This document shows, piece by piece, positions 4,861-23,002 of a DNA stretch of 23,910 nt. Every line of letters starts with the position of its first letter. Positions within the stretch are counted from its first letter, which is position 1. Where the stretch lies: the IMG/VR virus record IMGVR_UViG_3300044295_000401. The stretch is one strand, 5' to 3'. The translations under genes and the position numbers were made by a program. The stretch is from an uncultured virus (IMG/VR IMGVR_UViG_3300044295_000401) (taxonomy: Duplodnaviria; Heunggongvirae; Uroviricota; Caudoviricetes). A model generated the notes under the pieces. That model saw only the letters and a program-made list of their open reading frames with translations. It did no database searches and was not told the origin of the DNA.

Positions 4861-6815
4861 TATTGCCACTCTCCGCTAGAATCGTTATCAGATTCTGCTT
4901 TCTTCTTTTGTTCAAGGAGATATTCAAGCTCTGCTTCTTCTTCTTCTGTAACCTCTCGAATTTCACCGCGTTTACCAGACCAAGCAAAGTTAAACATTCC
5001 AAGTTCACCAAGATCGTTCTTAAGGATAGCCATTTGTAGGAACTTATCTTTATCTGCGGTTTCTGGGGTAAAGAATGGACGCCAAATAGAGATGATGCTA
5101 CGGAATGATTGATAGAGAAAGCTAGAACCTTTAATAGCTGTATAACTTTTAATTGGTTTATCCGGGCCTGAACCAAGGCTAAACTTATTTGGTTGTACTA
5201 GAGTAACCATCGCTACGTTAAAGTCGTTTACTAAGTCTTGGAGCTGTCCCGCAATATCTTTTGAAGCTGCCGTGTCCTCTGACTTATCGCTGTTAACTCG
5301 TTCAAAGTAATCAAGCATGACCAGCTTGACTTTTTTCCCGGTTTCGGCTTCAACTTCTTCAATATATTCTCTAATGTCGTTAACAGTAGGACAAGATCTA
5401 TCATAAAACCAGACGTTAGCGTAATCCTCTTTAATTTTTTTAGTGATGTTTTGGATTTCGCCCGCTTGGATCTTGGCATATAGGTCGCCTCGTGATAGTC
5501 CTGTTGTTTTATATAGTAGCTTCTCAAATAATCGGTTGCGATGCATGTCTAAGCTAGCAAACACAGATACTACACCAGCTTTAGAAGTATTCTTAAGGAT
5601 TTCAAGTGCTAAGGCCGTTTTACCCGAAGAGGCTGCACCCACAATACCAAGGTTCATACCAGTTGTAATAGGCATAGCTTGGTCTAAGCACTTAATTCCA
5701 GTAAGAACAGTATTTTCATCAATGTGTTTAACGAAGTGCTCAAACTCATCTTGAATATCATGAATACGTCGAGCTTTAAACTCTTCTTCTTTTTTTACCT
5801 CAAAGCCCATTTTTTGACAATATTTATTAAGCCAAGGATTAGTTTGTGGGCTATATTGACCGCCTTCCCAATTATCTGAATAGACTGATTTTTCAATAAT
5901 ATTTTCGTATAATTCTTCTTTTGAAAACTCTTCTTCGCCATATCTTTCCGCTTGAGCTTTTAGAGCAGATTTACAAAAATAATATGCTTGCGCTTTATTA
6001 TATTTTAAACCTCTACAAGTAGCAGCAATAACCATAAGCGCATTATGGCGTTCACCAGATTCAAAAAATCCACAAGCTAAAGCCCATTTATAAGGTTTCC
6101 AACCTTTAGGAATATTTTCTAAGCATTCTTTTAATTCTGGAAGAATTACATTATTTACTTTTGCTTCTACTTTTTCTTTACGTTCAAATAATGTTTTTAT
6201 AGAATCATTAATTTTAAATCGTTTATAATAAGATAATACATCTTCTTTATTAAAATTTGTTATATCTTTAGATGATTCAACAATTGAATCTAGGTTATAA
6301 TTTAGTAATTCTTCAGATGTTAGTGGTATTTTAAAAAAACCCGTTTTTTCATTTCTTGTAAATAATAAACGAAAAATACGCTGATGATCATACATTGATG
6401 TATCGAATGTTTTTAAGTCTTTGGCTAAAGACATAACAATACATTTAACATCTTCTAATGAAATTTGATCTTCTAAATCTATAATAAAGCCAACACCTTT
6501 ATTACCTGAAAAAGATATTTGTATGTGTTCATCGTTTAACCCTATTTGTTTAAGACGATTATAAAATATTTTTGCGTCATTAAAAGCAGTTTTAACATCT
6601 TTGCTATCAAAATCTGCCCAAATTCGATCAGTTAATGAGCCTGACATTTTGGCTAAACTTTTAGTTTTTAACCATTCATTATATTGTTTATCAGTATATT
6701 TCATCATAGAAATGAAATATGGTTTATTAATATTTTTAATATATTTAAAAGGAGATTCAATATCAGGAATTAAAATATTGTTTGTATAATCTTCTGAAAA
6801 ACGAATATATTGCAT
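4860..6815 (-). CDS. primase-helicase fusion: AEP-like primase, PriCT-like helical domain, DnaB-like (SF4) helicase
   Basis: AEP motifs IWADFD, SFSGNKG, DTSMYD..RIFRL...RNEKTG; PriCT-like GERHNALMVIA; helicase GAASSGKT, FASLDM, VMLDYFE, LKNDLG. Confidence 0.88.
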   Translation of the reverse strand: MQYIRFSEDYTNNILIPDIESPFKYIKNINKPYFISMMKYTDKQYNEWLKTKSLAKMSGSLTDRIWADFDSKDVKTAFNDAKIFYNRLKQIGLNDEHIQISFSGNKGVGFIIDLEDQISLEDVKCIVMSLAKDLKTFDTSMYDHQRIFRLLFTRNEKTGFFKIPLTSEELLNYNLDSIVESSKDITNFNKEDVLSYYKRFKINDSIKTLFERKEKVEAKVNNVILPELKECLENIPKGWKPYKWALACGFFESGERHNALMVIAATCRGLKYNKAQAYYFCKSALKAQAERYGEEEFSKEELYENIIEKSVYSDNWEGGQYSPQTNPWLNKYCQKMGFEVKKEEEFKARRIHDIQDEFEHFVKHIDENTVLTGIKCLDQAMPITTGMNLGIVGAASSGKTALALEILKNTSKAGVVSVFASLDMHRNRLFEKLLYKTTGLSRGDLYAKIQAGEIQNITKKIKEDYANVWFYDRSCPTVNDIREYIEEVEAETGKKVKLVMLDYFERVNSDKSEDTAASKDIAGQLQDLVNDFNVAMVTLVQPNKFSLGSGPDKPIKSYTAIKGSSFLYQSFRSIISIWRPFFTPETADKDKFLQMAILKNDLGELGMFNFAWSGKRGEIREVTEEEEAELEYLLEQKKKAESDNDSSGEWQ

Positions 6816-7297
6816 TATTTACCTGCGTTTTTGTATTTAACTAAATTCATAATCCAAGAATGAAATTCTGGTACAGTTGCATTATTTTTTGCTCTATTAC
6901 AAATTTTACAACAAGTTAAACTATTTATAGAATCATATCCTTGAGTATTTATTAATCTATCAATACCATTATGACTATAAGATTTGCCTCCAATTATATT
7001 AGTAATTGAATCTTTCATTCCGCAGTAAATACATTCAGATTCAATTAGAGATTTAAATTCTTTAATTGAAAGATTAAATTCTATTTTTCGTTTTTTTGCG
7101 TTGTTTTTATATTGATTATAGATATATTGATAAGGAGGAATTTTACCTCCAAAATCTTTACAACGAATGCATCCTTCAAATTTATTTTGAAGTTCATTAT
7201 ATGAAAGTATTATTTTATCACCACATTTACAAATACAATTCCAATAATGTAAATTATTTATAGTATGCGAATAATTCTGTATTGTAAAATTAGCCAT
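6815..7297 (-). mobile_element. free-standing HNH-type homing endonuclease
   Basis: YWNCICKCG, YKNNAKKRKIEFNLS, CIYCG, GIDRLINTQGY...NSLTCCKICNRAK; very AT-rich; TAATG-coupled to the primase-helicase. Confidence 0.85.
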
Positions 7298-7682: not shown

Positions 7683-7889
7683 TTACTCTTCACAAAATTC
7701 TGGCATACCAATTTCAATACCACCAAGAATATTATTATGCGCTTTTTCACATATTTCATTTATTTGATCTAATGTAATCCTATTACAAACGTCAACTTGA
7801 CCTTCGTTATAGCTAGAACAATAAAACACGGTTGGCTTTTGTGAAGCACAACTGGTTAAACATAACATAATAAAACTGAGTTTTTTCAT
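7683..7889 (-). CDS. predicted lipoprotein, 68 aa
   Basis: The ATG at 7889 gives MKKLSFIMLCLTS-C: basic N-terminus, hydrophobic core, lipobox. The track's longer start runs into the structured intergenic element. Confidence 0.65.
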   Translation of the reverse strand: MKKLSFIMLCLTSCASQKPTVFYCSSYNEGQVDVCNRITLDQINEICEKAHNNILGGIEIGMPEFCEE

Positions 7890-7977
7890 AAAAAGGTGAG
7901 GGCTGGTAAGCGAGGAGGATAAACTTTCCATTTAAGCTATAAGCACCCTCGGGGGATTAAATTGTTATAAGAACAAA
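7890..7977 (-). ncRNA. candidate structured RNA element A
   Basis: GC-rich intergenic stretch; stems GAGGG/CCCUC, GCU/AGC and UGGAAAGU/GCUUACCA with loop UUAUCCUCCUC, followed by ACC and U5. Confidence 0.4.
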
Positions 7978-8235
7978 CTATGCTTCAACTAGCTCTACAA
8001 CTTCGCCTAGTACCCAAGCAGGGATCTTAGAAATACGTTCGCGTACTTTTTCAGCAGTATCTTCAGATACTTTACCTTGTGATACTGCATCTTCTAGAGC
8101 TTGTAGTTGATACTTTGCGCTCTCTACGCGATAGATTTTACCATCACGCATTTTAATATAAGGTGGTTTCCCGTCATCTTTTGACTTACAAAAAGAACCC
8201 ACTTGTTGACGCTTTAGTTTTTTACGTTCAGCCAT
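7978..8235 (-). CDS. hypothetical basic protein, 85 aa, possibly nucleic-acid binding
   Basis: MAERKKLKRQQVGSFCKSKDDGKPPYIK...; GAAGGA SD; lies near the recombination genes. Confidence 0.65.
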   Translation of the reverse strand: MAERKKLKRQQVGSFCKSKDDGKPPYIKMRDGKIYRVESAKYQLQALEDAVSQGKVSEDTAEKVRERISKIPAWVLGEVVELVEA

Positions 8236-8716
8236 TTTCATTTCCTTCATTCGTTACTTGTTGTTCGTTATTAAATTCCGTTTGTGTTTCCGCTGCTGCT
8301 TTCCTAGCTTCAGCCATAATTTCATCACGATGTTCATTGTACGTATTAGCAATTAATACGTATTTTGCATCCATTAGATTTTTACCAATACCAAAACATT
8401 CGCGTTCAAGAGCATCAGTATGTCTATATGTTTTACCTACAGGAAACTCTACAAGTGATTTAATTAATCGCCGTAGTTGACGATTCGATAAACGGTCAAC
8501 ACTAGCACTAAATCGTGGAGTGTATAGAGTAAGCATCATAGATGCAATTTCTACAGGATCTGGTTCGGCTTCAAGACGTTTACGTTCTTCTTCAATGAGC
8601 TGTTTTTCAACTTCAGCAGCATCTACGGCTTTTTCTATTTTAGCTTCTTCTGGAAGTGTGTCAAGCTTTTCAACATCATCCATTGAAACTTCAATTTTAT
8701 TTAATTTATTACCCAT
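8228..8716 (-). CDS. hypothetical helical protein, 162 aa
   Basis: Start MGNKLNK at 8716, directly after the micro-ORF stop. Confidence 0.7.
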   Translation of the reverse strand: MGNKLNKIEVSMDDVEKLDTLPEEAKIEKAVDAAEVEKQLIEEERKRLEAEPDPVEIASMMLTLYTPRFSASVDRLSNRQLRRLIKSLVEFPVGKTYRHTDALERECFGIGKNLMDAKYVLIANTYNEHRDEIMAEARKAAAETQTEFNNEQQVTNEGNENG

Positions 8717-8718
8717 TA

Positions 8719-8793
8719 TTAATAACCTGCTACACAAACACAAGGATGTTTTTCACCGCATCCAGGGCACTTTGTTTCAATGATTAAGTCCAT
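8719..8793 (-). CDS. 24-aa CPxCG zinc-finger micro-protein (not in track)
   Basis: MDLIIETKCPGCGEKHPCVCVAGY; starts in the last codons of the annealing-protein gene and stops 2 nt before the next ATG. Confidence 0.5.
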   Translation of the reverse strand: MDLIIETKCPGCGEKHPCVCVAGY

Positions 8794-9326
8794 TCTTCGC
8801 TTTCTGTAGCAGCAGCTTGAGCTTCTGGCTTCTTTTTACGGAACGTTGAAATCTTAGCAGCAGGTGCTGGTTCTGAGGCAGCAGCTAGTGATTCTTTAAG
8901 CTCGGATTTAGCAGCGGTAGCTGGTGCTTTGACTTCTTCTTTTGGATTAACTACAGGACTATCTGCTAGACGGGAACCTTCATCAAGGTCAGAAAGAGCA
9001 AATTGAGTACCATATCCCATTAGAGCAAGAGCACGACCAATTGCACCGGTTTCACTCTTTTCAATAAAGTCAGGGAAGTCTTTTTTAGATTCTTGTTTAG
9101 TAGCGGTAGCGTGGCGTACTTCACGTCCTTCTTTATCAAAGACTGTAACCTTAGCACGAGCTACAGCGCGTTCTTCCGTTACAGAAATAAAATCGGTATC
9201 AATGTGAAAACGTTCGGCTTCTTCATTAAACCATTGAATACGATGTGCTACTTGAAGATAGTCTTTTCCTTTTAGTTTAAGTAGAGGAAGAATAGTTCCT
9301 TTTACTGTTTTTAGTGTACTGCTCAT
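8784..9326 (-). CDS. Rad52/Sak-like single-strand annealing protein
   Basis: LKGKDYLQVAHRIQWF...AVARAKV...IEKSETGAIGRALALMGYG, then a low-complexity Ala/Pro/Glu tail; GGAG SD. Confidence 0.75.
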   Translation of the reverse strand: MSSTLKTVKGTILPLLKLKGKDYLQVAHRIQWFNEEAERFHIDTDFISVTEERAVARAKVTVFDKEGREVRHATATKQESKKDFPDFIEKSETGAIGRALALMGYGTQFALSDLDEGSRLADSPVVNPKEEVKAPATAAKSELKESLAAASEPAPAAKISTFRKKKPEAQAAATESEEWT

Positions 9327-9335
9327 ATTATCTCC

Positions 9336-9572
9336 TTAGCAATGACCGCTAGTTGGGTTAGTTAGTTTATCCATAAAGTTTTGATAATTTTCTTCTGCTA
9401 CTCTACGAGCTTCAATATCATGAAGTATACCAACAAGTTCATAAACTAAATGTGAACCTACTGCTAGTACTCCAGTCATATGATTAACAGTAAATACAGC
9501 ATAATAAATTGAACCGAGAATACTTAGTTTAGCTCCTAATTCAATTAAACCTAAAAGTTTTAGCTTACTCAC
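9336..9572 (-). CDS. small membrane protein
   Basis: Two hydrophobic segments; GTGA overlap with the upstream gene. Confidence 0.65.
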   Translation of the reverse strand: MSKLKLLGLIELGAKLSILGSIYYAVFTVNHMTGVLAVGSHLVYELVGILHDIEARRVAEENYQNFMDKLTNPTSGHC

Positions 9573-9888
9573 TCTTCTTTTCTCCTGTAAAAAAACCTTG
9601 TTTGTCTACTTCAACTTTAAAACGATCAATAGCATCTTCACGAATGTCTCTTAGAATTTCTTTAATATATCCAGTATCGCCCGTTTCAGGATCAAATGGA
9701 ATTTCTACCAAAACGTATTTAGTTCCAGGTCCATCTTTTACTGAATACATTCCAAGAGCTACATTAGGGAATGATTTAGTTTGAACTTCTTCTGATTCTT
9801 CTTTTACAGAAGCTTTAGAAGGATTAATTTCTTCTAGTTTAAGTCCAGTTCGTTCTAGAAATTCTTTTGAATATTTATGCTTACTCAT
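9565..9888 (-). CDS. hypothetical protein, first gene after a promoter
   Basis: 107-aa ORF; ATG lies 7 nt after a -10 box. Confidence 0.75.
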   Translation of the reverse strand: MSKHKYSKEFLERTGLKLEEINPSKASVKEESEEVQTKSFPNVALGMYSVKDGPGTKYVLVEIPFDPETGDTGYIKEILRDIREDAIDRFKVEVDKQGFFTGEKKSE

Positions 9889-9895
9889 ATTTTCT

Positions 9896-9924
9896 ATATT
9901 ACCTCAATTTGTAGTGTTTGTCAA
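9896..9924 (-). promoter_or_regulatory. sigma70 promoter, predicted leaderless or 1-nt leader
   Basis: TTGACA (9924-9919), 17 nt, TAATAT (9901-9896), 7 nt, ATG. Shares AGTTGACAAACAC with the promoter at 616-644. Confidence 0.75.
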
Positions 9925-10259
9925 CTAGTTTTCTTTAATTCTGGGTGCGGATCAACATAACAGATGCCATTAACTTTAAAATGCTCATCTAACTCATGTA
10001 ATTCTAAACGTTTACAAGTTATATAAAGTATTTTAATAAACTGTTCTTTGTCTAATATATTGAAATAACGTTCATCAAAAATTTGAATAGTCTTAATTGG
10101 AATGATTGGTGCCATTTCAAAACTATAACCACTACAAGCGTCTTTTACTGGAGCAGTTGCTACTAATGTTATTCCGCGATAAATATCTTCCTGTATTTTA
10201 AAATAGAAATTCTTATAAGTAATTTCGTTTATTATATTTCTAGCTTCTTGGATAGTCAT
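9921..10259 (-). CDS. hypothetical phage protein
   Basis: C-terminal ELHELDEHFKVNG...DPH motif; ATGA overlap. Confidence 0.7.
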   Translation of the reverse strand: MTIQEARNIINEITYKNFYFKIQEDIYRGITLVATAPVKDACSGYSFEMAPIIPIKTIQIFDERYFNILDKEQFIKILYITCKRLELHELDEHFKVNGICYVDPHPELKKTS

Positions 10260-11122
10260 TCTTCTTTTTTATCTTCTTTATATGCTTTAATTAAACCAGA
10301 ATAATCGCCAAATGAACACGCTCTTTCGTATTCACATGGTTTACCAAATGCTTTACACGATTTATAATTACAAGGAAATTCTTTATTTTTAATCTTTAAA
10401 AGGGTTTGTTCGAGAAGATTAAAAGACTTTTGTTTTGTTTCTTCTGGAACTTCATCAACGATTAATTGATGGGTTAAACCTTTTTCTTTTGCTGGATTTT
10501 TAATAAGAACAGCATAAGCCGCGAATTTAATATCAGGGTAGTTTTCTAAATATAAACTTAACTGTTGACTTTCAATAACCGCTTTCTTTTTGTACTTTGC
10601 GCTAGCTGTTTTGTTATCTAATAAAACAGTTCTTCCATCTTTTAGTTTAACAACAGCGTCAACAACAAATTCAAAGATATCTCCTTCTTCATTTGAAAGC
10701 TCACCACGCTTTTGTACTTCAATAACTTCTTCTATTTCAGGCAGTATATTAGTTATGTAAATATCAATACAAGCTAGGCCACGTTGTACAATATTATCAA
10801 ATACTACTTCTTGATGTTCTTTATTATCAGGGTCTATTGAGTCTTGTAGTTCTTCTGGTACTTCATTTTTAAAGAAATCTAGGGTATTTTGACCGTCCCA
10901 TTTGTGCATCTCTGTAACAAATATATCTTTAGCTTTACCTTGGCACCATTCTTTTTTATCTTTAATACACTCAAGAATGTAGTTTAGCGCAGCGTCCATA
11001 GCAGTACCAAATAAAAGCGGCGTTCGAGTAACATCTGCTTTTAGCTTTTCTATATACTTAAAGTAAAACTTTTTAGGACATAGCTGATACAAATCCAGTT
11101 TGGAATTACTGATGCGTGTCAT
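10256..11122 (-). CDS. PD-(D/E)XK exonuclease, Cas4/AddB-like, probable Fe-S cluster
   Basis: ISNSKL..YQLCPKKF, LLFGTAMD, VVDAVV...VLLDNKTAS, QLSLY, C-terminal CKAFGKPCEYERAC. Confidence 0.85.
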   Translation of the reverse strand: MTRISNSKLDLYQLCPKKFYFKYIEKLKADVTRTPLLFGTAMDAALNYILECIKDKKEWCQGKAKDIFVTEMHKWDGQNTLDFFKNEVPEELQDSIDPDNKEHQEVVFDNIVQRGLACIDIYITNILPEIEEVIEVQKRGELSNEEGDIFEFVVDAVVKLKDGRTVLLDNKTASAKYKKKAVIESQQLSLYLENYPDIKFAAYAVLIKNPAKEKGLTHQLIVDEVPEETKQKSFNLLEQTLLKIKNKEFPCNYKSCKAFGKPCEYERACSFGDYSGLIKAYKEDKKEE

Positions 11123-11123
11123 A

Positions 11124-11303
11124 TTATTGTTGACTTTTTTGTTCGTCTTTTTCTACTTGTTCGTAAAATAGTTTAGCTACACGAATAGCATTTTCCATTA
11201 AACCTTCGTGTGCTTTTAAAGACTTCTCTGTAAGATAGTCTACAGGAAGTTTACGTAAAAAAATCTCTTTAGCTAGATCATATATCGCTTGTTCTTTTGT
11301 CAT
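11124..11303 (-). CDS. hypothetical protein, 59 aa (not in track)
   Basis: MTKEQAIYDLAKEIFLRKLP...; GAGG SD; abuts both neighbours. Confidence 0.7.
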   Translation of the reverse strand: MTKEQAIYDLAKEIFLRKLPVDYLTEKSLKAHEGLMENAIRVAKLFYEQVEKDEQKSQQ

Positions 11304-11480
11304 CTATTCCTCTATTTTTAGGCCTTGTTTAACTAGAAAGTTAACAATCTTTTCAGCTAGTTCATAATCGCGAACAAATGAAAACTCTGGGTTATAATTC
11401 ATTTTATGACGAATTACTTCCCAATCTTTTACAGGTAGAACTTGCTCTGCTAGTTTAATTTTAAGTTCAGTACGTGTCAT
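11304..11480 (-). CDS. hypothetical protein, 58 aa (not in track)
   Basis: MTRTELKIKLAEQV...LAEKIVNFLVKQGLKIEE; GAGG SD; ATGA overlap. Confidence 0.7.
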   Translation of the reverse strand: MTRTELKIKLAEQVLPVKDWEVIRHKMNYNPEFSFVRDYELAEKIVNFLVKQGLKIEE

Positions 11481-11863
11481 GTGTTCCTCTTATATTCGCC
11501 TGTGATTGGATCAATCCATACTATTGATTTAATAATACGTTTGGCATCTAATAAATCATCAATACATAGTTCTGGTTTAGCCATTACAAAATCGGCAACA
11601 TTTTCTAATCCAAGGGCTTTAGTTACTTTTTCTGCCCATTCTCCTCCCGCTGCTGACCAAATAACTATACCGTATCCTTGACGTTTCAAATTAATAAGAA
11701 AGTCAATATTTTTTTTATGAGGTAAAAGGCTCCATGTACCATATTCATCTGTAAATGAAATTAAATCTTCTAAGTTATGCGGATATTTTTGATAATCCCA
11801 CAATATTAGAGAGTCGTCTACATCAGAATAAACAATTCGTTCTTTTTTAAGCGCCTTATACAT
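11477..11863 (-). CDS. HAD-superfamily phosphatase
   Basis: Motif I YSDVDDSL, motif II VIWSAAG, motif III/IV KPELCIDD. Confidence 0.8.
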   Translation of the reverse strand: MYKALKKERIVYSDVDDSLILWDYQKYPHNLEDLISFTDEYGTWSLLPHKKNIDFLINLKRQGYGIVIWSAAGGEWAEKVTKALGLENVADFVMAKPELCIDDLLDAKRIIKSIVWIDPITGEYKRNT

Positions 11864-12512
11864 TTTTAATCCCTAGCTCAATAATATTAGGTCCATTTAA
11901 TGGTTTATATTCTTCTGTACAAATAGCTCCATTAGAATACAATGTTGATCCATTAAAATGTAATCCGTGGCTGTAATGGATATGTCCAAAACAATGAAGC
12001 TTTAACTTATTTAGTTTATTTAAGCGTTGTAGTAATTCTTCAGAACCGACTCTATCCCAAATACAAGAATCCAAAATTCCCTTTGGTGGACAATGAGTTA
12101 AAAGAACTTCAGTATCTTCAGGAATACGATCATAAAACTCGGCTAGCTCGTTATATAATGGAATGTTGTATGCCCAACCACCAAAGTATGGTTGATAAGA
12201 AGTACCAAAGAATTTATATCCGTCGTAGGTATATTCTCTTTCGTGCATTATCTCAATGTTAGGGATTGTTTCTTTAAGAAAGTTTTCAGCTTCTAGTGGG
12301 GTGTGTTGAAATGCCCAGTCGTGATTACCAGGAAGGAATAGAATCTTTTTAAACTTGTGGTGAATAGGGTCTAGTTGTTGTCTAAACTTGATTAGATCAG
12401 AAAAGTCGCCGCTGTTAAGGGCATCCCCGGTGTGAATAAGAATATCAGCTTCTGGGAGCGTTGGGAACGCTTTAAGGTGTGTATCGCTGATATGCACTAA
12501 TTTGAGTGTCAT
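11856..12512 (-). CDS. calcineurin-like metallophosphoesterase (MPPED-like)
   Basis: HISDTH, IHTGD, PGNHD, LTHCPP, FGHIH. Confidence 0.9.
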   Translation of the reverse strand: MTLKLVHISDTHLKAFPTLPEADILIHTGDALNSGDFSDLIKFRQQLDPIHHKFKKILFLPGNHDWAFQHTPLEAENFLKETIPNIEIMHEREYTYDGYKFFGTSYQPYFGGWAYNIPLYNELAEFYDRIPEDTEVLLTHCPPKGILDSCIWDRVGSEELLQRLNKLNKLKLHCFGHIHYSHGLHFNGSTLYSNGAICTEEYKPLNGPNIIELGIKNV

Positions 12513-12518
12513 AGTAAA

Positions 12519-12547
12519 ACTATAACATTAAATTATAGAAATGTCAA
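12519..12547 (-). promoter_or_regulatory. sigma70 promoter, predicted leaderless start at ATG 12512
   Basis: TTGACA (12547-12542), 17 nt, TGt-TATAGT (12524-12519), 6 nt, ATG; no SD. Confidence 0.8.
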
Positions 12548-12594
12548 GTATTTAAATAGTACATTGACAAGATAGGGAGTATACCAAATTAGTA

Positions 12595-13284
12595 TTAAAT
12601 ACTCCAACCGTTTCTCTCTAGCGCATCTAATGCAACTGGACATATTCCAGACGCTTTAACTGCTACCATCATTTGATTAGCTAGATCTTGAATCTCCGGT
12701 TGAGCATCTGATTTGGAGCGTAATTTGTAAAAGTTGGCAAAAGAACGTAAGTTCATAACAGTTACTCGTTCTGTCATATTACCTTGCGGTAGAATATTAC
12801 GATATACTTCTCGTACTCTTTTATATTCAGAATTTGTAATAGTTCCGGATTTTTCAGCTTCCTTAAGATCCTGTAAAACTTGTCGATAACCTAAGTTAGC
12901 ATCTTCACATATTTCTTGATATAGTTTAAGATAATATGTATTACCGGTTAGCTTATTTAGAATAGCTTTTGCGTCATCGGGCATTTCTAAAAAGTCATTA
13001 GGCATAGTTCTATATCGACCACTCATTCCTGAATGACTTGCAATTCGATGTGTCATTACTTGTCTATCGGTACTAATAGGAATACGCATCCAAAAACGGA
13101 ATATTACAGATTCAAAAGGTACAGAATGTTTTAAATCTGCTAACATATTAACTACCCTAGTAGTATCAGCCTCTGTTCTAAGTTCTTTTTTAGATATTTC
13201 TAATGAACTAGTCCAAGCTGAATGAGCAATTGCTGTATCAGAGCCCATAGTTTCAAGTAATTCTACTTTAATTTGTTCGTTCAA
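12595..13284 (-). CDS. thyX: flavin-dependent thymidylate synthase
   Basis: HSVPFE, RQVMTHRIASHSGMSGRY (THR-x7-S variant of RHR-x7-S), R.ILPQ, NLRSFANFYKLR....AQPEI. Confidence 0.9.
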   Translation of the reverse strand: MNEQIKVELLETMGSDTAIAHSAWTSSLEISKKELRTEADTTRVVNMLADLKHSVPFESVIFRFWMRIPISTDRQVMTHRIASHSGMSGRYRTMPNDFLEMPDDAKAILNKLTGNTYYLKLYQEICEDANLGYRQVLQDLKEAEKSGTITNSEYKRVREVYRNILPQGNMTERVTVMNLRSFANFYKLRSKSDAQPEIQDLANQMMVAVKASGICPVALDALERNGWSI

Positions 13285-13795
13285 TGAAATTTCCTCTCAT
13301 TTTATCTAATAATTTTACAACTTCTAAAAATTCTTCATATGAAAAATGATTTCCTTTAATATAATTGCATTCTTTACAACATACTACACAATTATCTTTG
13401 GAATAACCTTTATTAGAATCTTTTTTATCTAAATTAGTTCTATGGTTTCCTTTACTAACATGTTTGTTCCATATTAATTTTTTATTACAATAATGACAAT
13501 TATTAATTTTTGTAAAATCTAAGAACTCTTCAAAAGATAAATTTATTTCTTTTTGCTTTTTACGTTTACTATTTGTTCTTTTAACACTATCTATAAAATA
13601 ATTATAAGTTCCTAAAAATGGAACTCCTTTATGAGAGCAAAACCTACATTTACCACTAGTATTTTTTAAATATTTTCTTTCAACTTTAATTATATTATCT
13701 TTACATTCTATACATTTAAAATGATATACATAACAAGAAGAATTATTATATACTCTTCTTTCACAAAGAATTGCATTGCTTGGATTTAATTCCAT
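13268..13795 (-). mobile_element. free-standing HNH-type homing endonuclease
   Basis: CIEC...CRFC, INLSFEEF, CHYCN, NLDKKDSNKGYSKDNCVVCCKECNYIK; very AT-rich; overlaps the thyX start. Confidence 0.85.
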
Positions 13796-14370
13796 TAAAA
13801 ATGCATTCCTGGTTTTTTAAAGGAAAGATTAAGACGTTCAATTGTATTGATTAGCCTATTAGCAGGAGAACAATTTAATTGAATTACGTTATTATCGTAC
13901 TTTTCTAAAACAGAATTTAATAGAAGACGATCAATGTGTTTAGTTTCGGTTAGATTAGAATAACGTCCTTGAGGATTAAAAATACTTTCATCTAAAGGAA
14001 TATAAAGATTAATTGGTTCTTTAATAAGTTGACGGTTATATGCTTCGGCATATACATTATCGTCTAATTCATTTAAAGAACTAGAGGCGTGATAGTAATT
14101 ACAATAGAAGCTTCCTAGATGTAAGGGACTGTCCGTAATTAGATATTCTACCTTACCATACAAAGAAGTCTCTTGAAGCATTTGTTTATTGGTAATAAAC
14201 ATTTGTTCAAATACCGTTGGTTTTTTACCTTGCCAAGCCCATTCTTTAATTTCTTCTCTAATAAGCTCAACAGAATAACCTTGCTTCTTCATCCAAGAAT
14301 AAAGTTCTGAAGCAAGAGTTGACTTACCGCTACCAGGTGAACCAAACACATTAATTACAGTAGTTTTCAT
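13795..14370 (-). CDS. P-loop kinase/ATPase (AAA_28, NadR-kinase-like)
   Basis: INVFGSPGSGKST, VELIRE.IKEWAW, LITDSPL, GRY. Confidence 0.75.
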   Translation of the reverse strand: MKTTVINVFGSPGSGKSTLASELYSWMKKQGYSVELIREEIKEWAWQGKKPTVFEQMFITNKQMLQETSLYGKVEYLITDSPLHLGSFYCNYYHASSSLNELDDNVYAEAYNRQLIKEPINLYIPLDESIFNPQGRYSNLTETKHIDRLLLNSVLEKYDNNVIQLNCSPANRLINTIERLNLSFKKPGMHF

Positions 14371-14531
14371 TTTACTTCTTTTTTAAGTTTGTTATATTCT
14401 TTAATGATTTTGTCTAATTGTTCCGTGGTTAAATATACTACACCAACACCATCGTAAATACGATAGTATCTATCTGCTCCCTTTTCTTCTGGCGTTGCAG
14501 TTCTAATACAAGGTGAAATTCTTTCTGTCAC
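14367..14531 (-). CDS. hypothetical protein, 54 aa (not in track)
   Basis: GTG start after AAGGGG; MTERISPCIRTATPEEKGADRYYRIYDG...; ATGA overlap with the kinase. Confidence 0.65.
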   Translation of the reverse strand: MTERISPCIRTATPEEKGADRYYRIYDGVGVVYLTTEQLDKIIKEYNKLKKEVK

Positions 14532-14564
14532 TTAAGCCCCTTGGTTAACTAAATGATAAATACT

Positions 14565-14593
14565 AGTATACCACAAACTAAAATAGAAATCTA
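14565..14593 (-). promoter_or_regulatory. extended -10 promoter
   Basis: TAGATT (contains the upstream TAG stop), 17 nt ending TGTGG, TATACT (14570-14565). Confidence 0.55.
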
Positions 14594-14824
14594 CTTATTT
14601 ATTTTACGTTCAATACATGTTAGAATTTCTGAGTTAACTAAATAGTGAGCAAGCTCTTCTTGGACAGGTTCAGTTAGGTTATCAGCACCAAACCGTTTCA
14701 TATCCTTTTCAAGCTTTTTAATGTCTACGTCTGCTAGACATTTGATTTCAAGTTCAGCTAGCTCATGAGTAAAGGTACCTGCTTGAGCTGTTAGAGTTAT
14801 AAGTAACATTGTTAAATTAATCAT
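14591..14824 (-). CDS. small protein with probable signal peptide, 77 aa
   Basis: The ATGA-overlap start gives MINLTMLLITLTAQA-G (AxA cleavage site). Confidence 0.55.
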   Translation of the reverse strand: MINLTMLLITLTAQAGTFTHELAELEIKCLADVDIKKLEKDMKRFGADNLTEPVQEELAHYLVNSEILTCIERKINK

Positions 14825-15141
14825 CGACCGTAATCTTTCCAATGGTTATCGTGAGGTATCCAAGAAGGTAATTGAAGTTCTTTATAATCTATCCAAGCTA
14901 GCGCATATTCTTTATTGTAAAAGAATTCATCTTCTTCATCTTGAGTTAAATAAATCCAATAAGAACCTTTTCCAGTAAAATCTTCGTTATTAACTATAGG
15001 ATTCTTTCCTTGATTATCATACTGTACAACACCAAAATAAATTTCGCATGACAGTGGATTATGCTCTTTCCAATGCTGTGTAACAACAGCGATGGTCTGA
15101 CCTTCTTTAGGTAGTTCTTTTTTGGGATCTTTCCAGTTCAT
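14821..15141 (-). CDS. hypothetical protein with DUF551-like N-terminus
   Basis: MNWKDPKKELPKEGQTIAVV...LAW. Confidence 0.65.
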   Translation of the reverse strand: MNWKDPKKELPKEGQTIAVVTQHWKEHNPLSCEIYFGVVQYDNQGKNPIVNNEDFTGKGSYWIYLTQDEEDEFFYNKEYALAWIDYKELQLPSWIPHDNHWKDYGR

Positions 15142-15144
15142 TTT

Positions 15145-17949
15145 TTATAACTCACATAAACCACCAGCACAAGCTAGTTGTTCAACTCGTTGAGTATTAT
15201 CTTCTTCTTCTTTTACTTCTTTAAGATCAACATCTTTTACAAGTAACATATATTTTTCATACGTTTCTTTAGAGCAAGCTTCAAACGGTGCCTGTTTATA
15301 ATTTCCGCCGTCATATGGTAACAAAGAAATGCCTGTATAATTTTTTCTATTTTTCCAAAGGGATTCGCCTAATTTATCCCATTCATTGTCTTTAACAGAA
15401 ATTGTAGCAGAAACGTTATGTTTATTATCTCCTGTTCTGTGACCTGGAACAATCCAATGTTTATTAAATAAAATTACTCGATCTAATAGATCAAACGCGG
15501 TTTCATTTTCTCTTAAAATTGCACCATCCGGTGATTTTTGAGGAACAGTAACCACAATACCAGTAGAGCTAGTAACATCTTCTTCTACTAATTCAGGGAT
15601 AACTTTAGAAAGATATTGACTTAATGCATCGGATTTATTCATACGAATTCGTCTTAAATAATAAGCACTGTGTCTAGCATGTACGCCGCTAGATGAGCCT
15701 AAAACACAACTTGATGTGCCTTCGGGTTTAATTGCCGTTGTACGTGCTGCTAAATTAATACCGATTTTTTTAGCATATTTTTCATTTACATCAAGTACCA
15801 ATTGTGCTCCTTCTTCCAACCATTCAACGTCAATATTACCGGCATCAGCAATACCCGTACAGCTTACTCCTAACAGTGCTTCTAAATCTGTTGTTTGTTT
15901 CCAAATTGGACGTAAGTAAGGAAAGTCAGTGTAGCTAGCTTGAAGCGTACCAATTAAAGCGGCGGTATAAACTCGATTAAGATAATCGCGTTTATCTTTA
16001 ATTCCGGTCATATTAATTGTTGACAAATTACAAAATTGGTTAGAATTTAAGGCAATTTCATGGCACTGTCCAGTAATAATACCATTAAATATACCTAAAT
16101 GTCGTTTAGGTTCATTAAAACAATATACTTTATCAGCTATTCCAGATTCAGTAATATCTACAACTGTAATATATTGGCTTGCATCTCTTTGGGGAGTTTT
16201 ATCGAACTTTAATCGTTCGCAAGTTAATCCGAGTTTTTTAAGTTGCTGCATTTGAACAGCACCAATGCAAAGTCTATAAGAATCTTGACAATAAAAATCC
16301 TTATATCCTTTATTACCATTAGGTAATGTTCTCATCCCAGCTTTCATTCCTGGAACTATCTTACACTGTACGCCAATAGTTGAAAGAAGACTTTGTAGAT
16401 TGGTTAAAAACTTTCTATCGACAGAACCTAACTGTAATCCGCCTTCTTTTAGTTCACAGCCGTCTCCATCAAATAAGCCCGCCAACCAATTAAGTTTTCC
16501 TTTTAAATTCCATTCAAAAGGAACCATTGATTTTAATTCGTGATTATATTTTAGATTAAAAATATATCTTTCTTCTTTTTCATTATATTTACCGACATTT
16601 CCGGCTAGCCGTTTAATTGATGTTTCTTTAGGTTTATATAACCAAAGAAAATTATATCCATCCATACCTTCTGCTGAAATAAATCCTTGGGTATAAGCAT
16701 AATCATCTTTAACTTCAATTCCGGTTTCAATAATTGGAAATTCATGTTTAATGAGTTTCATTCCAACTTCTAATTCTTTAGCTTTAACTTCTCTGCTATC
16801 TCCAGAATATCCCATAGCAATATGGAATGTATGATATTTAGTACAAGTTAATGATCTGCCATCATTAAAAGTAATTGTAACTAATTCTTGGTTTTCTCCT
16901 GTTACTTTAGGAGTAACTTTTGACCATTCAAATCCATTCCAAATTGTAACTTCTTCATCTACAATAGAATCAATTCGTTTATAACCGTTATCTGTTAAGA
17001 TTTCGGTATCCCCTGTTACGCAAGGATTGTATCCCATGTCAATATTATTTGACCAACTAAATCCTGGTTCACCAGCGCCAGAATTTTTGCAAGTATTAAA
17101 AATATGAATAAATTCTTCTTTGGTTACTTCTTGTAATGGAAGAACAGCAGAGTTATTTGCTCTTGCGCGATAAGGATGTTTTAACCACCATTCTCCAGAT
17201 TTAGCTTTTAACATTTCTGTATCATTTCTATCAAATAAACTAATTAATGCTGCTCTACGAATTCCACCAGCTAAAACAGCATCAGATAATATACATATAA
17301 TATCATGAATTTCAATAGGCATCAACTGTCTTCCGATACTTAATTTAAGACGTTGTTCAACTTCTTCAAGAGCTTTTCTAAGCGGCTCTGGTCCAGGGGC
17401 TTTTGCTCCTGTTGTTACAAGATAAGAGCCTTTTGGACGAATGCTGCTATAATCAAATTGTGGACGAATTCTCCCATAAAAATATGCTTCAAATAAAACA
17501 TTTACAGCTTCAGCCCATCCAATAATACTATCATGTATAATGTATTTTCCTTCTTCTCGCGGAGAGGTGACTTTAGGTAATTGAGAGGTGTGTCTTTTTT
17601 GTACAGAATAACCAACGCCTACACCGGAAAGGAGAAGAAACATAATTTCACTAAAAATTTCAACATCTTTAATATGAGCAAATGAACAATTGTATTGTCT
17701 TGCATTGTTTTTTAAAACGGCTTCTCCTGAGAACTGCAAAGCTCTCATTGATGGCATCGCTTTTAAATCATGAACTCTTTGATATGCTTTAACAATATCT
17801 TTAGATAGTTTAGGAAAACGATCTAAATGCATCAACATATTTCTGTTAATAATTTCTTCTAAAGTTTCTCTTCGTCCTAAATGAGGTTGAAATTTAGCAT
17901 ATGTACGAAATGACGTTTTTGTGCTTAAAAGCTTATTGCTTAAATCCAA
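15145..17949 (-). CDS. nrdJ: ribonucleotide reductase, probably class II (B12-dependent), intein-containing; spliced product 615 aa
   Basis: RTYAK, MPSMR, YNCS, GVGVGYS, GGIRRAALI, GEPG, NP-[intein]-CHEI, CNL, IKPEGTSS, terminal CAGGLC; TTG start with AGGAG SD; no small-subunit gene in the window. Confidence 0.88.
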   Translation of the reverse strand: MDLSNKLLSTKTSFRTYAKFQPHLGRRETLEEIINRNMLMHLDRFPKLSKDIVKAYQRVHDLKAMPSMRALQFSGEAVLKNNARQYNCSFAHIKDVEIFSEIMFLLLSGVGVGYSVQKRHTSQLPKVTSPREEGKYIIHDSIIGWAEAVNVLFEAYFYGRIRPQFDYSSIRPKGSYLVTTGAKAPGPEPLRKALEEVEQRLKLSIGRQLMPIEIHDIICILSDAVLAGGIRRAALISLFDRNDTEMLKAKSGEWWLKHPYRARANNSAVLPLQEVTKEEFIHIFNTCKNSGAGEPGFSWSNNIDMGYNPCVTGDTEILTDNGYKRIDSIVDEEVTIWNGFEWSKVTPKVTGENQELVTITFNDGRSLTCTKYHTFHIAMGYSGDSREVKAKELEVGMKLIKHEFPIIETGIEVKDDYAYTQGFISAEGMDGYNFLWLYKPKETSIKRLAGNVGKYNEKEERYIFNLKYNHELKSMVPFEWNLKGKLNWLAGLFDGDGCELKEGGLQLGSVDRKFLTNLQSLLSTIGVQCKIVPGMKAGMRTLPNGNKGYKDFYCQDSYRLCIGAVQMQQLKKLGLTCERLKFDKTPQRDASQYITVVDITESGIADKVYCFNEPKRHLGIFNGIITGQCHEIALNSNQFCNLSTINMTGIKDKRDYLNRVYTAALIGTLQASYTDFPYLRPIWKQTTDLEALLGVSCTGIADAGNIDVEWLEEGAQLVLDVNEKYAKKIGINLAARTTAIKPEGTSSCVLGSSSGVHARHSAYYLRRIRMNKSDALSQYLSKVIPELVEEDVTSSTGIVVTVPQKSPDGAILRENETAFDLLDRVILFNKHWIVPGHRTGDNKHNVSATISVKDNEWDKLGESLWKNRKNYTGISLLPYDGGNYKQAPFEACSKETYEKYMLLVKDVDLKEVKEEEDNTQRVEQLACAGGLCEL
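16066..17022 (-). mobile_element. intein, 319 aa, with LAGLIDADG endonuclease
   Basis: N-terminus CVTGDTEILT, block B LTCTKYHTF, endonuclease helices TQGFISAEG and LAGLFDGDG, block F KVYCFNEP, C-terminus NGIITGQ followed by Cys. Confidence 0.93.
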
Positions 17950-17967
17950 CTGTAACTCCTACAATAA

Positions 17968-18894
17968 TTAACGTGAACGAACACCTTGACGATTTAATGT
18001 AATTGAACCACCCATTAACGAATGGATATTCTTCATATGTTGTTTATGAGCATTTAACTCTTCATTAATTTTACTCTCAGATTCAAGACCGCGATCTTTA
18101 AGATCTTTAATACGTTTAACAACCGTATCTAAGCTTTCTCCTAAACATTTTACAGCCAATACTGTTTCTTTAATTTCATCAATAGAGAATCCTTCTGTAC
18201 TATCAATCCATTTATTTAATAGCTTTTCGTCAATATTCTTGTTCTTAAGATAAACGGTTCGAGCTAGTGTATCAGGGAATTCTACCTCAACAATAGAACT
18301 AAATCGCCCAGGGCGTTGCATACGCATTGGTACTTCTTCTAAATAGTTTGTTGTTGCAAGGTAAATAACATTATTCTTTTGAACTTCACCATCTAATACA
18401 GAAAGAAGATCATCTTCAAACTCTTTAGCATAAGTATCAAATTCTTCAAAGATAACAAAAGTAAGTTTATCAGGAGCAGTTTGATCCAGAGCTTTATAAT
18501 AGTTTTCTAGTTCAGATGGGTTAGGATTAAATAGAATTACTGCATTGTTTTTAAGAGCTTCTTTAGCAACACGATTAACAATTACAGTTTTACCTGTTCC
18601 TGGTTTACCATGCAGCAATACAGAGCGTTTGTAAATAAACCCTTCTCTAATATAAGCTTCTTTAGTAGAAGGTTTAAGAAAATGCTTTATTTGGTTTAAT
18701 ACGTAGTCATATTCTTTAGAAGGAAGATCAATAATGTCATCACAAGTCATTTTAAGCTTATGGAACTCAATTTGACCAGTATCATAGTTAGTATTAGCGG
18801 TATATGCACCGGAAGGAAGTTCTTTATGCGTTCCATCTATTTTAAATGGAATAAACTTATCGTTGGATTCTACAAATAGATTATATTTTGACAT
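17968..18894 (-). CDS. BCS1-like AAA+ ATPase, 308 aa
   Basis: KRSVLLHGKPGTGKT, FVIFEEFD, LLSVLDG, ATTNY, RPGRF; ATG at 18894 preferred to the track's TTG at 18930. Confidence 0.88.
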   Translation of the reverse strand: MSKYNLFVESNDKFIPFKIDGTHKELPSGAYTANTNYDTGQIEFHKLKMTCDDIIDLPSKEYDYVLNQIKHFLKPSTKEAYIREGFIYKRSVLLHGKPGTGKTVIVNRVAKEALKNNAVILFNPNPSELENYYKALDQTAPDKLTFVIFEEFDTYAKEFEDDLLSVLDGEVQKNNVIYLATTNYLEEVPMRMQRPGRFSSIVEVEFPDTLARTVYLKNKNIDEKLLNKWIDSTEGFSIDEIKETVLAVKCLGESLDTVVKRIKDLKDRGLESESKINEELNAHKQHMKNIHSLMGGSITLNRQGVRSR

Positions 18895-18972
18895 TAAATT
18901 GAATTGCCTTTCTAAAAAACCAAAACCCAAAATTTATATGACTAAAAAATGAAGCGAGATCAAGAATAAATG

Positions 18973-19056
18973 ATTACCGACTGTGCCAGGGCTCGGTAAA
19001 ACACACCTTTACCATACTTGTCTAAGTACCGGCTGGTAATTGTTTTGTCGAAACAA
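18973..19056 (-). ncRNA. candidate structured leader RNA element B
   Basis: Lies in the ~165-nt leader after a consensus promoter; UUGU-UUCG-ACAA hairpin, then stems AUUACC/GGUAAU, GCCGG/CUGGC, UACUU/AAGUA, GGUAAAG/UUUUACC. Confidence 0.5.
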
Positions 19057-19067
19057 GGAATAAAATG

Positions 19068-19096
19068 ATTATAGCAAATTACATGCTATTTGTCAA
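19068..19096 (-). promoter_or_regulatory. perfect-consensus sigma70 promoter
   Basis: TTGACA (19096-19091), 17 nt, TGc-TATAAT (19073-19068). The -35 contains the upstream TGA stop. Confidence 0.88.
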
Positions 19097-19719
19097 TGTG
19101 TTTTTTTTTGAGTTTCAAAAGTTGCCCAACTTTCAATAGTACTTAAGCTTACTGGTCGGTATTTATTACTTCTTACTCCAACATCATATTGACGGTCAGT
19201 AGAGCGGGGTTTCACATTATTATCTGAGTGAATATGTCCATGTAAATGAAAATCTACTGTAAGGTCATGGTTAGTAAACATCGTGTTTTTAAATTCACCA
19301 TGCCAGTTTTCGCCTTCTTTAGCTCCACGCATATTACTTACATCTTCTCGCGGAATACCAGGTAAAGGACAATGACTCATTGAGAATCGTTTATTACCAA
19401 TATAAAATATTCCGGCATTAAGAACTACATCAAATCCTGCTTTATACATTGCATGAATATTTTTATCATGGTTACCTAAAATTAATACTTTAGTTCCATG
19501 AAGACGATTAATAACTTTAGATACTTCTTCACCTTTACATAATCCTACGTCTCCTAGGAAATAACAAATCCCATTAGGAGGTACTGTAGAATTATAATTA
19601 CGAATTAAAGATTCGTGCATATCTTCTAAATCTTTAAATGGACGATTATCGAATTCAATAACTCGTTTGTGACCTATGTGCCAATCACTTGTAAAAAATA
19701 TTGGTTTACGTTCATTCAT
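19093..19719 (-). CDS. calcineurin-like metallophosphoesterase (phage type)
   Basis: FFTSDWHIGH...RPF, YFLGD, LGNHD, SHCP, LHGHIH, YDVGV. Confidence 0.9.
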   Translation of the reverse strand: MNERKPIFFTSDWHIGHKRVIEFDNRPFKDLEDMHESLIRNYNSTVPPNGICYFLGDVGLCKGEEVSKVINRLHGTKVLILGNHDKNIHAMYKAGFDVVLNAGIFYIGNKRFSMSHCPLPGIPREDVSNMRGAKEGENWHGEFKNTMFTNHDLTVDFHLHGHIHSDNNVKPRSTDRQYDVGVRSNKYRPVSLSTIESWATFETQKKTH

Positions 19720-22879: not shown

Positions 22880-22959
22880 GCAGCAATAGTGCTAGACACA
22901 ACAATATAAGTAAAGAACATTATTAGAAAATACCAAACATCGGTAGTTTTAATATTCAT
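22876..22959 (-). CDS. possible 27-aa membrane peptide (not in track)
   Basis: MNIKTTDVWYFLIMFFTYIVVSSTIAA; ATGA overlap downstream, but its start lies inside a predicted -10 box. Confidence 0.3.
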   Translation of the reverse strand: MNIKTTDVWYFLIMFFTYIVVSSTIAA

Positions 22960-22986
22960 CTTAACATTTTTCCTTGTTTAAGTCAA
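22958..22986 (-). promoter_or_regulatory. sigma70 promoter, leftward
   Basis: TTGACT (22986-22981), 17 nt, TGt-TAAGAT (22963-22958). Confidence 0.6.
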
Positions 22987-23002
22987 CTGTTTATGGTACA
23001 AT
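22974..23002 (+). promoter_or_regulatory. sigma70 promoter, rightward, predicted leaderless start at ATG 23009
   Basis: TTGTTT (22974-22979), 17 nt, TGg-TACAAT (22997-23002), 6 nt, ATG; overlaps the leftward promoter. Confidence 0.65.

Follow-up and report, generated by a model that had tools for sequence, protein, structure and literature searches.

The described systems that lie closest to the RNA elements analyzed here are intrinsic terminators, riboregulators with “C-rich” loops, and the attenuators or promoter-proximal terminators of leader RNAs. The C-rich-loop riboregulators include the RsaE/RoxS and cuckoo/CcsR RNAs, and CCUCC in such a loop has the sequence of the anti-Shine-Dalgarno tail of 16S ribosomal RNA. 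The 6C small RNA (sRNA) of Actinobacteria is reported to be a further riboregulator of this kind (PMC6486639). The elements considered here belong to a stretch of 23,910 nucleotides (nt) from an uncultured virus of the Caudoviricetes (IMG/VR record IMGVR_UViG_3300044295_000401), the whole of which is referred to below as the window. Two intergenic elements on its minus strand, A (7950-7898) and B (19033-18985), had been proposed in a first-pass annotation to be diverged copies of a single phage RNA family with a three-way-junction fold. The present analysis leads to a different reading, to which a probability of roughly 0.6 is assigned: A is a branched terminator or 3'-end module, B is the leader of a different operon, and the two are different things.

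Neither element corresponds to a catalogued RNA family; the first-pass annotation had likewise recognised no riboswitch, ribozyme or tRNA in them. A search of Rfam at the gathering score gave 0 matches in the whole window, the only matches around A and B lay far below the gathering score (with E of at least 2.8), and a search of the window for transfer RNA (tRNA) gave none.

Element A at the 3' end of the p90 gene

Element A directly follows the gene of a conserved protein of about 90 amino acids, which is called p90 here. The features of this locus are the following.

7978..8250, minus strand: p90 gene, encoding a conserved protein of ~90 amino acids with positional orthologues and no known family, whose 3' end is marked by A
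7962..7976, minus strand: hairpin UUGUU-cuuau-AACAA just past the p90 stop codon, specific to the window
7898..7950, minus strand: element A, a Y-shaped (three-way-junction) RNA judged from its sequence, with the same architecture and place in the relatives L080, L082 and G001
7950-7945 with 7903-7898, minus strand: closing helix of A, GAGGGU with GCCCUC, pair probability 0.95-0.99
7944-7936, minus strand: weak hairpin 1 of A, GCUUAUAGC
7935-7931, minus strand: junction of A, UUAAA
7930-7923 with 7911-7904, minus strand: hairpin 2 of A, UGGAAAGU with GCUUACCA, with the loop UUAUCCUCCUC at 7922-7912
7890..7897, minus strand: terminator-like tail of A, an ACC spacer and U5 directly after the closing helix

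The Y design directly 3' of the p90 stop codon recurs in three of three close relatives (L080, L082 and G001), of which G001, a syntenic IMG/VR contig of 85.5 kb with ~68% nucleotide identity, is the nearest to the window. The basal helix is GAGGGU/GCCCUC in the window, L080 and L082, and GUGGU/GCCAC in G001. Common to all copies are a weak first hairpin, the junction UUAAAUG which follows it and, on the 3' side, CAGCC, the 3' strand of the helix and the U tract (U9 with no spacer in L080, a C-rich spacer and U5 in the other three; the window's tail, CACCUUUUUAU, is identical in G001). The stem of hairpin 2 is different in every phage (UGGAAAGU/GCUUACCA, UGGUCAAGUA/UACUAGAUCA, UGGUAAGG/CCUACCA and UGAUUGUUGUAA/UUACAGCAAUCA), while its loop contains CCUCC in the window, L080 and L082, and CCCCUCCCC in G001. 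The letters of the junction and the loop are kept in this way at a coding-DNA identity of only ~68% between the phages, and each genome carries a single copy of the A-type element.

The orthologues fold as a Y on their own, with z-scores of -3.4 to -3.8 for G001, -2.05 for L080 and -1.30 for L082. In the alignment of the four sequences 98.1% of the cells are paired, compared with at most 49% in slid controls, and 5 of the 14 pairs show changes on both sides; the covariation score of 0.464, against 0.201 in shuffles, was reached by 1 of 500 shuffles. A covariance model built from three A copies with the G001 copy kept out of training (model R1) finds the G001 element at 14.5 bits with an E-value of 0.045-0.29; this and the other models described below were run on the window and on the loci fetched from relatives, with a shortened calibration that makes their E-values rough. 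A is a conserved, structured and uncatalogued phage RNA element, and its position, its conservation, the covariation of its helices and the constancy of its CCUCC loop and U tract are matters of observation.

The layout is that of an intrinsic terminator: a stable G+C-containing helix (6 base pairs, 4 of them G-C) followed by a U tract, at the 3' end of a gene and on the transcribed strand. Since a U tract comes after the basal helix GAGGGU/GCCCUC, A would be expected to terminate transcription without the help of a factor and to stabilise the RNA's 3' end. A would then be the 3'-end module of the p90 messenger RNA (mRNA), with the p90 gene group on one side and the helicase-polymerase genes on the other, and the hairpin nested within it would display an unpaired CCUCC. 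The gene downstream of A varies between phages, being the p117 gene in G001 and L080, an inserted HNH-like gene (by eye) in L082 and a lipoprotein-like gene in the window, whose AUG (7889-7887) abuts the tail of A; A therefore belongs to the 3' end of p90. We infer from the arrangement of helix and tract that transcription probably terminates at A, and the loop may pair with purine-rich ribosome-binding sites or bind a protein. Taken together, the sequence features of A are best read as those of a branched intrinsic terminator or 3'-end module with an “anti-Shine-Dalgarno-like” loop.

More distant relatives place related features at the same spot. L079 has a single long hairpin with a UCCUCC loop, and so contains CCUCC, followed by U6 (z -6.7). 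Others have a hairpin with a CU-rich loop, whose stem often includes the stop codon, plus an ordinary terminator. The CU-rich loops sit on unrelated stems in L083 (CCUAGUA-CUCUCCU-UACUAGG), L091 (UCAUAG-UCCUCCUCCU-UCUAUGA) and L093 (CCUAG-CCCUCCU-CUAGG), and an ordinary G+C hairpin with a U run occurs in L083, L084, L081, L091, L093, L103 and L104. Of 26 loci, 19 have a helix and U tract, by the criteria applied here, no more than 200 nt past the p90 stop codon, with a hairpin of -8.9 kcal/mol or stronger in 14, and 17 have a CCUCC-type word within 125 nt of the stop codon, compared with 9.5% of background windows; the 26 loci are not independent cases, because some are near-duplicates.

A number of points weigh against the reading proposed here. 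The covariation of A comes from only four sequences, in an alignment fitted to the model itself. In the window's own copy the minimum-energy fold draws the interior differently from the three-way junction (z -1.94), and hairpin 2, which contains an A-A mismatch, pairs with a predicted probability as low as 0.03-0.04. A is not listed by a simple terminator scan, because the enclosed “loop” greatly exceeds 8 nt. The window, L082 and G001 have a C-rich spacer of 2-3 nt before only 5 U, so that termination may be weak; a leaky terminator of this kind would fit the presence of genes directly downstream. Duplexes of the CCUCC loop with the start regions of 39 window genes have a median of -6.5 kcal/mol, against -6.0 kcal/mol for shuffled loops, and the best of them (-12.4 kcal/mol, at the start region of the gene at 7297) compares with a median minimum of -13.55 for shuffled loops. 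The public sequencing runs that contain the window sequence are freshwater metagenomes of DNA only, with no RNA run listed among them. The contigs of four of the DNA runs, compared with positions 7700-19200, list no variant inside A or B, and therefore provide no natural covariation from reads. On the side of B, the judgement depends on one orthologue only, that in G001.

Coding and promoter functions for A were considered and dropped by eye: a sigma-70 promoter inside A, an opposite-strand gene that would use GGAGG at A, and a small open reading frame (ORF) across A, where the conserved letters do not keep the same frame between the window and G001. The ATG within UUAAAUG also opens different frames in these two phages (by eye), and the conserved letters of A appear from this comparison not to be coding.

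A possible alternative, which we hold only tentatively, is that the p90 mRNA provides a riboregulator with its 3' end, whole or processed. The CCUCC loop would then pair with phage or host Shine-Dalgarno sequences and damp translation, the Y-shaped terminator being the scaffold. Such a function would account for the retention of a CCUCC-type loop while the stems change completely, for the inclusion of the stop codon in the hairpin of distant relatives, and for the constancy of junction and loop letters at ~68% coding-DNA identity; mRNA-binding sRNAs with C-rich loops do exist, the 6C sRNA being reported as an example (PMC6486639). Against it stand the loop duplexes, which are no stronger than those of shuffled loops at the 39 start regions, the failure to find a target with co-varying flanks, and the window's own downstream gene, which has no Shine-Dalgarno sequence. 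A more far-reaching version, somewhat less probable again, would make A a riboregulator from the p90 mRNA 3' end whose CCUCC loop covers ribosome-binding sites or titrates a factor, as one member of a wider uncatalogued class of phage terminator hairpins, with B perhaps having borrowed part of the junction as an antiterminator arm.

Several other sequences found near p90 genes or by pattern are recorded here as observations in their own right. In L105-L110 a long conserved non-coding stretch lies at A's place, ~20-190 nt past the p90 stop codon (GUGUCACCUACC...GGUGAGUUC...); it looks structured, and in L105 and L109 it has no Rfam match at E of 0.01 or below. L112 has an Rfam tRNA match of 38.1 bits at 1583-1659, after the 3' region of p90, and tRNA-like sequence is seen by eye past the p90 stop codon in L103, L087 and L092. 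In L117 (an IMG/VR contig, G007) a region of ~390 nt without a gene (285-670; a frame of 42 amino acids on the opposite strand only) ends in an A-like junction, GAGGGU..UUAAAUGG..CCAGCCCUC with a hairpin UGGUG/CGCCA and with neither a CCUCC loop nor a U run, just before a gene of 172 amino acids that is by eye an HNH-type endonuclease with N-terminal repeated motifs. No p90 and no Rfam match were found in L117, whose junction, having been picked by the pattern itself, may be a chance match; it was used solely for broadening a covariance model (R3, below). Two further matches of the pattern scan arise by chance in unrelated sequence: L019, and L118, which is a repeat array of a Calidithermus genome.

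The leader that contains element B

Element B lies at the other end of the region, downstream of a strong promoter, and its surroundings contain the following features.

19068..19096, minus strand: sigma-70-type promoter TTGACA-17-TATAAT with TG extension, 12/12 matches to the consensus, inferred start near 19062
19040..19056, minus strand: leader hairpin or inverted repeat UUGUUUCGACAAAACAA, ~+6 to +22 of the inferred transcript, with CCTTGTTTCGAC.AACAA conserved in G001
18985..19033, minus strand: element B, drawn as a three-way junction in the first-pass annotation; not found by A-type models
19028-19015, minus strand: hairpin 1 of B, UACUU-AGAC-AAGUA, the sole thermodynamically robust part
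18974..18999, minus strand: alternative hairpin UUACCGA(12-nt loop)UCGGUAA, then UCAUUUAUUCUU; pair probability ~0.3
17968..18894, minus strand: AAA+ ATPase gene, ATG at 18894, the first of the operon led by B
15145-17949, minus strand: intein-bearing ribonucleotide reductase gene, next in the operon

The promoter at 19096-19068 is the only one in the scanned region that matches the sigma-70 consensus at 12 of 12 positions. B starts ~30 nt downstream of it, within the ~168-nt leader of the AAA+ ATPase gene, and would thus make up the first ~80 nt of the leader ahead of the ATPase and ribonucleotide-reductase operon. A TTGACA promoter is found at the same place in the relatives G001, G002 and G006, with leaders that differ; those of G002 and G006 are too short for any B-like element. 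Two features of the G001 leader are also present in the window. One is the block CCUUGUUUCGAC.AACAA; the other is a terminal hairpin, which in G001 reads GCCGAG-uaacuu-CUCGGU with AAUUUUUUU behind it and is flagged as terminator-like (-8.4 kcal/mol), and to which the window's UUACCGA..UCGGUAA hairpin is homologous. The B orthologue in G001 consists of three serial hairpins and has no three-way junction, so that the junction which had been drawn for both elements holds for A, where it is kept in three of three close relatives, and falls for B, being absent in G001, G002 and G006.

The window's own sequence also gives little weight to a junction at B. The three-way junction is the centroid structure of B as an isolated 53-mer (z -0.71), while in a 113-nt leader the closing helix and hairpin 2 of B have pair probabilities of at most 0.006, as against 0.76-0.98 for hairpin 1. 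When enforced, the junction has an energy of -18.3 kcal/mol and the alternative hairpin -19.6 kcal/mol, compared with a minimum free energy of -21.7 kcal/mol. The alternative hairpin takes up the strand of the junction's hairpin 2 and holds the 3' closing strand in its loop, so that the two folds of B exclude each other. A consensus fold of B and the G001 leader from a MAFFT alignment (-2.1 kcal/mol) was uninformative.

What is conserved of B is one hairpin at the 5' side and another, with a U-rich tail, at the end, and B therefore looks like a promoter-proximal attenuator or a short leader RNA and not like a copy of A. The two genomes that can be compared point to a serial-hairpin leader, possibly an attenuator or a short promoter-proximal RNA. 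The more specific proposal that B is a transcription attenuator, in which the junction or its hairpin 2 (UGGUAAAG/UUUUACCG) acts as antiterminator and UUACCGA..UCGGUAA with its U-rich tail as terminator, is an unlikely one. The two folds would in that case set the share of the strong promoter's output which reaches the ATPase and reductase genes, and the proposal fits with folds that are mutually exclusive and only ~1.3 kcal/mol apart when enforced, with the clear hairpin and U7 that G001 carries ~95 nt past the same promoter, and with a leader that is unusually long compared with those of other window promoters. It is weakened by the broken U tract (UCAUUUAUUCUU) and the 12-nt loop in the window, by its dependence on two sequences, by the finding of no sensed signal, no leader peptide with a ribosome-binding site and no Rfam riboswitch, and by G002 and G006, which manage without such a leader.

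The other TTGACA-type promoters of the window (12519-12547, 9896-9924 and 22950-22990, minus strand) have very short leaders, the 168 nt of B being the exception. In G001 (L010, 905-1088) the leader continues for ~184 nt that are richer in G+C and non-coding, plus an ORF of 67 amino acids before the ATPase gene; this stretch has a fold z-score of only -1.22 and no Rfam match.

Likeness between A and B

The strings and coordinates given for A and B in the first-pass annotation are exact, and both elements lie within non-coding gaps. On the window's minus strand GGTRCTTA, ATGG(T)AAAG and TTACC(G)AGCC occur in A and B only. The window has three TTACC(N)AGCC words and two TTGTT..AACAA hairpins, every one of them in or next to A or B, and this concentration speaks for a connection between the two sites. 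The hairpin upstream of each element, which had been counted as part of the shared design, is indeed found in the window (as TTGTT-N(3-9)-AACAA) just upstream of A and B only, but none of the A regions of L080, L082 and G001 has it. Judged from these sequences it is ancestral at B, being present in G001, and at A it belongs to this window only.

Whether such similarity exceeds chance depends on the alignment and on the background. By standard local alignment the core score of 17 was reached by 21 of 1000 dinucleotide shuffles and the extended score of 18 by 104 of 1000, and other places in the window outscore B against A. With permissive gaps (88 against 81 nt) the score of 48 was reached by only 1 of 2000 shuffles, a result that favours kinship. 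Real sequence sets a higher standard: in a background of ~43,400 tiles from the window and G001 on both strands, two unrelated coding places (58.5 and 51.5) stand above B when A is the query, and with B as the query five places outscore A, whose 46.0 makes it 6th. The answer is mixed: the permissive alignment stands out from shuffled sequence, and real unrelated sequence scores as high or higher. Pairwise MAFFT alignments were poor for A with G001 and for A with B alike.

The relatives provide a sharper comparison. A orthologues score 53-82 among themselves, while B scores 48 with the window's A and 22.5-26.5 with the remaining A elements, except for a score of 38 with the A of L082, which is above the shuffle mean of 28 and is again a point on the side of kinship. 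The B-type leader of G001 scores 27-33 with every A element, which is background (shuffle mean 28). The words that A and B share are different from those kept among the A orthologues (UUAAAUG, CCUCC, CAGCC and the U run), and the common AGCCCU belongs to junction and stem in one drawing and to the stem only in the other.

Covariance models fail in both directions. The best match of R1 on the B strand in the B region has 5.3 bits and is merely a U run, with 21 other window sites at 6.2-12.6 bits. R3, a model of the R1 type broadened with G001 and L117 in which loop and tail weigh less, gives a best B-strand match of -0.3 bits there, with 16 other window sites at 6.0-14.6 bits. Model R2, built from B with the structure of the first-pass annotation, finds B itself in the window; A is not listed at E of 10 or below, nor is it among the four chance matches (6.3-8.4 bits). 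Over the loci of 31 relatives R2 gave nothing convincing, its one match having 11.4 bits and an E-value of 4.1. Homologues with covariation accordingly exist for the A design (L080, L082 and G001, with 5 of 14 pairs), and the B-type model leads to none that convince.

It is on this evidence very improbable that A and B represent a single phage RNA family, either a three-way-junction RNA or a protein-binding element, as its diverged copies. The claim draws on three common words in the same order with a TTGTT..AACAATT hairpin upstream of each, all unique in the window, on the permissive score of 48 (1 of 2000 shuffles), and on the score of 38 between B and the A of L082. It runs against the failure of the reciprocal models, the broadened R3 included; the lack in B of UUAAAUG, of a CCUCC loop and of a U tract right after the helix; the different pairing of the shared AGCCCU in the two drawings; a junction probability at B of at most 0.006 in context, and the junction's absence from G001, G002 and G006; the background scores (27-33) of the G001 B-type leader with all A elements; and unrelated coding sequence that aligns as well or better. 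The likeness of A and B consists of a few short words and lies at the top of the chance range for sequence of such composition, not outside it. A shared functional family has no support. A local exchange of sequence between the A and B sites in this one phage keeps a small probability, and the clustering of TTACC(N)AGCC and of the TTGTT hairpins points in that direction. A separate observation by eye is that the tail of A (CACCUUU, 7890-7898) is the exact complement of AAAGGUG in hairpin 2 of B (19004-19012) over 7 nt, which is probably chance.

The most doubtful alternative, that A is a ligand- or protein-responsive terminator with an aptamer-like junction, whose closing helix is the terminator stem and in which a factor (perhaps p90) raises termination, would explain why the junction letters GGU, UUAAAUG and CAGCC are kept beyond the needs of a plain terminator and why A is always tied to p90, but two simple hairpins replace the junction in more distant relatives, p90 has no recognisable RNA-binding fold, and no riboswitch family matches.

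If the reading of A as a branched terminator is correct, A marks the border between two gene blocks in a small lineage of uncultured freshwater phages, and in a compact ~55 nt combines a branched terminator with a constant anti-Shine-Dalgarno-like loop. The comparison also illustrates that two intergenic elements can be alike in words and in a drawable junction and not be one family; only the relatives separated A from its look-alike B.

Gene content, relatives and known systems

The window contains ~40 genes, all on the minus strand, at a G+C content of 33%, and is a phage replication and nucleotide-metabolism module. It encodes a family-B DNA polymerase, a DnaB-type helicase-primase and a PD-(D/E)XK nuclease, together with ThyX, two metallophosphatases, a GMP-reductase-like enzyme, an AAA+ ATPase and a ribonucleotide reductase whose sequence is interrupted by a LAGLIDADG-containing intein. 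In one contig of run X7 (80% likeness), position 15445 of the reductase gene (15145-17949, minus strand) is followed directly by 17234, with 1788 nt left out; the contig could be an allele without the insert, or come from another organism.

Beyond G001, the wider lineage comprises ~25 further contigs recruited through alignments of the helicase and of p90. GenBank phages gave no DNA match to the window, no p90 match, and helicase matches that were all below 31% identity; no helicase relative was found in the genome collection. A metagenome scan with the nuclease alignment gave full-length relatives of at most 27% identity only, which were not used. For p90, 14 positional orthologues were aligned and further ones were found by the alignment scan, for which 6 of the 14 were used, the 14-protein alignment being too diverged. 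The protein matches no Pfam or PHROG family, and its AlphaFold2 model (predicted local distance difference test score 89) has no PDB match at E of 0.001 or below.

Between A and the p117 gene lies one further feature.

7683..7889, minus strand: small lipoprotein-like gene (MKKLSFIMLCLTSC...), lipobox by eye

This gene starts at the U tract of A and lacks a Shine-Dalgarno sequence; G001 and L080 do not carry it, and in them p117 comes straight after A. HNH-type endonuclease genes lie near A on its downstream side in the window (6815-7297, minus strand; PHROG HNH endonuclease) and directly after A in L082 (4094-4543, by eye), and the spot past A seems to be one at which free-standing endonuclease genes settle.

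Set against the systems described at the outset, B resembles leader attenuators and promoter-proximal terminators in that its long leader stands behind a strong promoter, its hairpins exclude each other, and the last hairpin has a tail rich in U. It is unlike them in having no leader peptide with a ribosome-binding site and no riboswitch match, in its degenerate U tract, and in being represented by two genomes only. B is an ordinary leader, and the proposed two-copy family of A and B is not supported as real.

A shares with C-rich-loop riboregulators an unpaired C/U-rich loop (CCUCC) on a stable hairpin beside a terminator, the loop being constant while the stems vary. It differs from them in that no target was found for it and its duplexes are no better than those of shuffled loops; no promoter of its own was found either, so that the p90 mRNA, by its 3' end, would have to be the source of a riboregulator. 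With intrinsic terminators it shares a G+C-rich basal helix and U tract at a gene end, and ordinary terminators occupy the same position in distant relatives. It departs from them in being branched, with 41-65 nt enclosed and two inner hairpins, in the 2-3-nt spacer before a short U5 in 3 of 4 copies, in the conservation of its loop and junction letters, and in not being called by a simple scan. By likeness, which is the sense in which membership of either class is meant here, A would work as an intrinsic terminator does, with a loop that resembles those of the C-rich-loop riboregulators.

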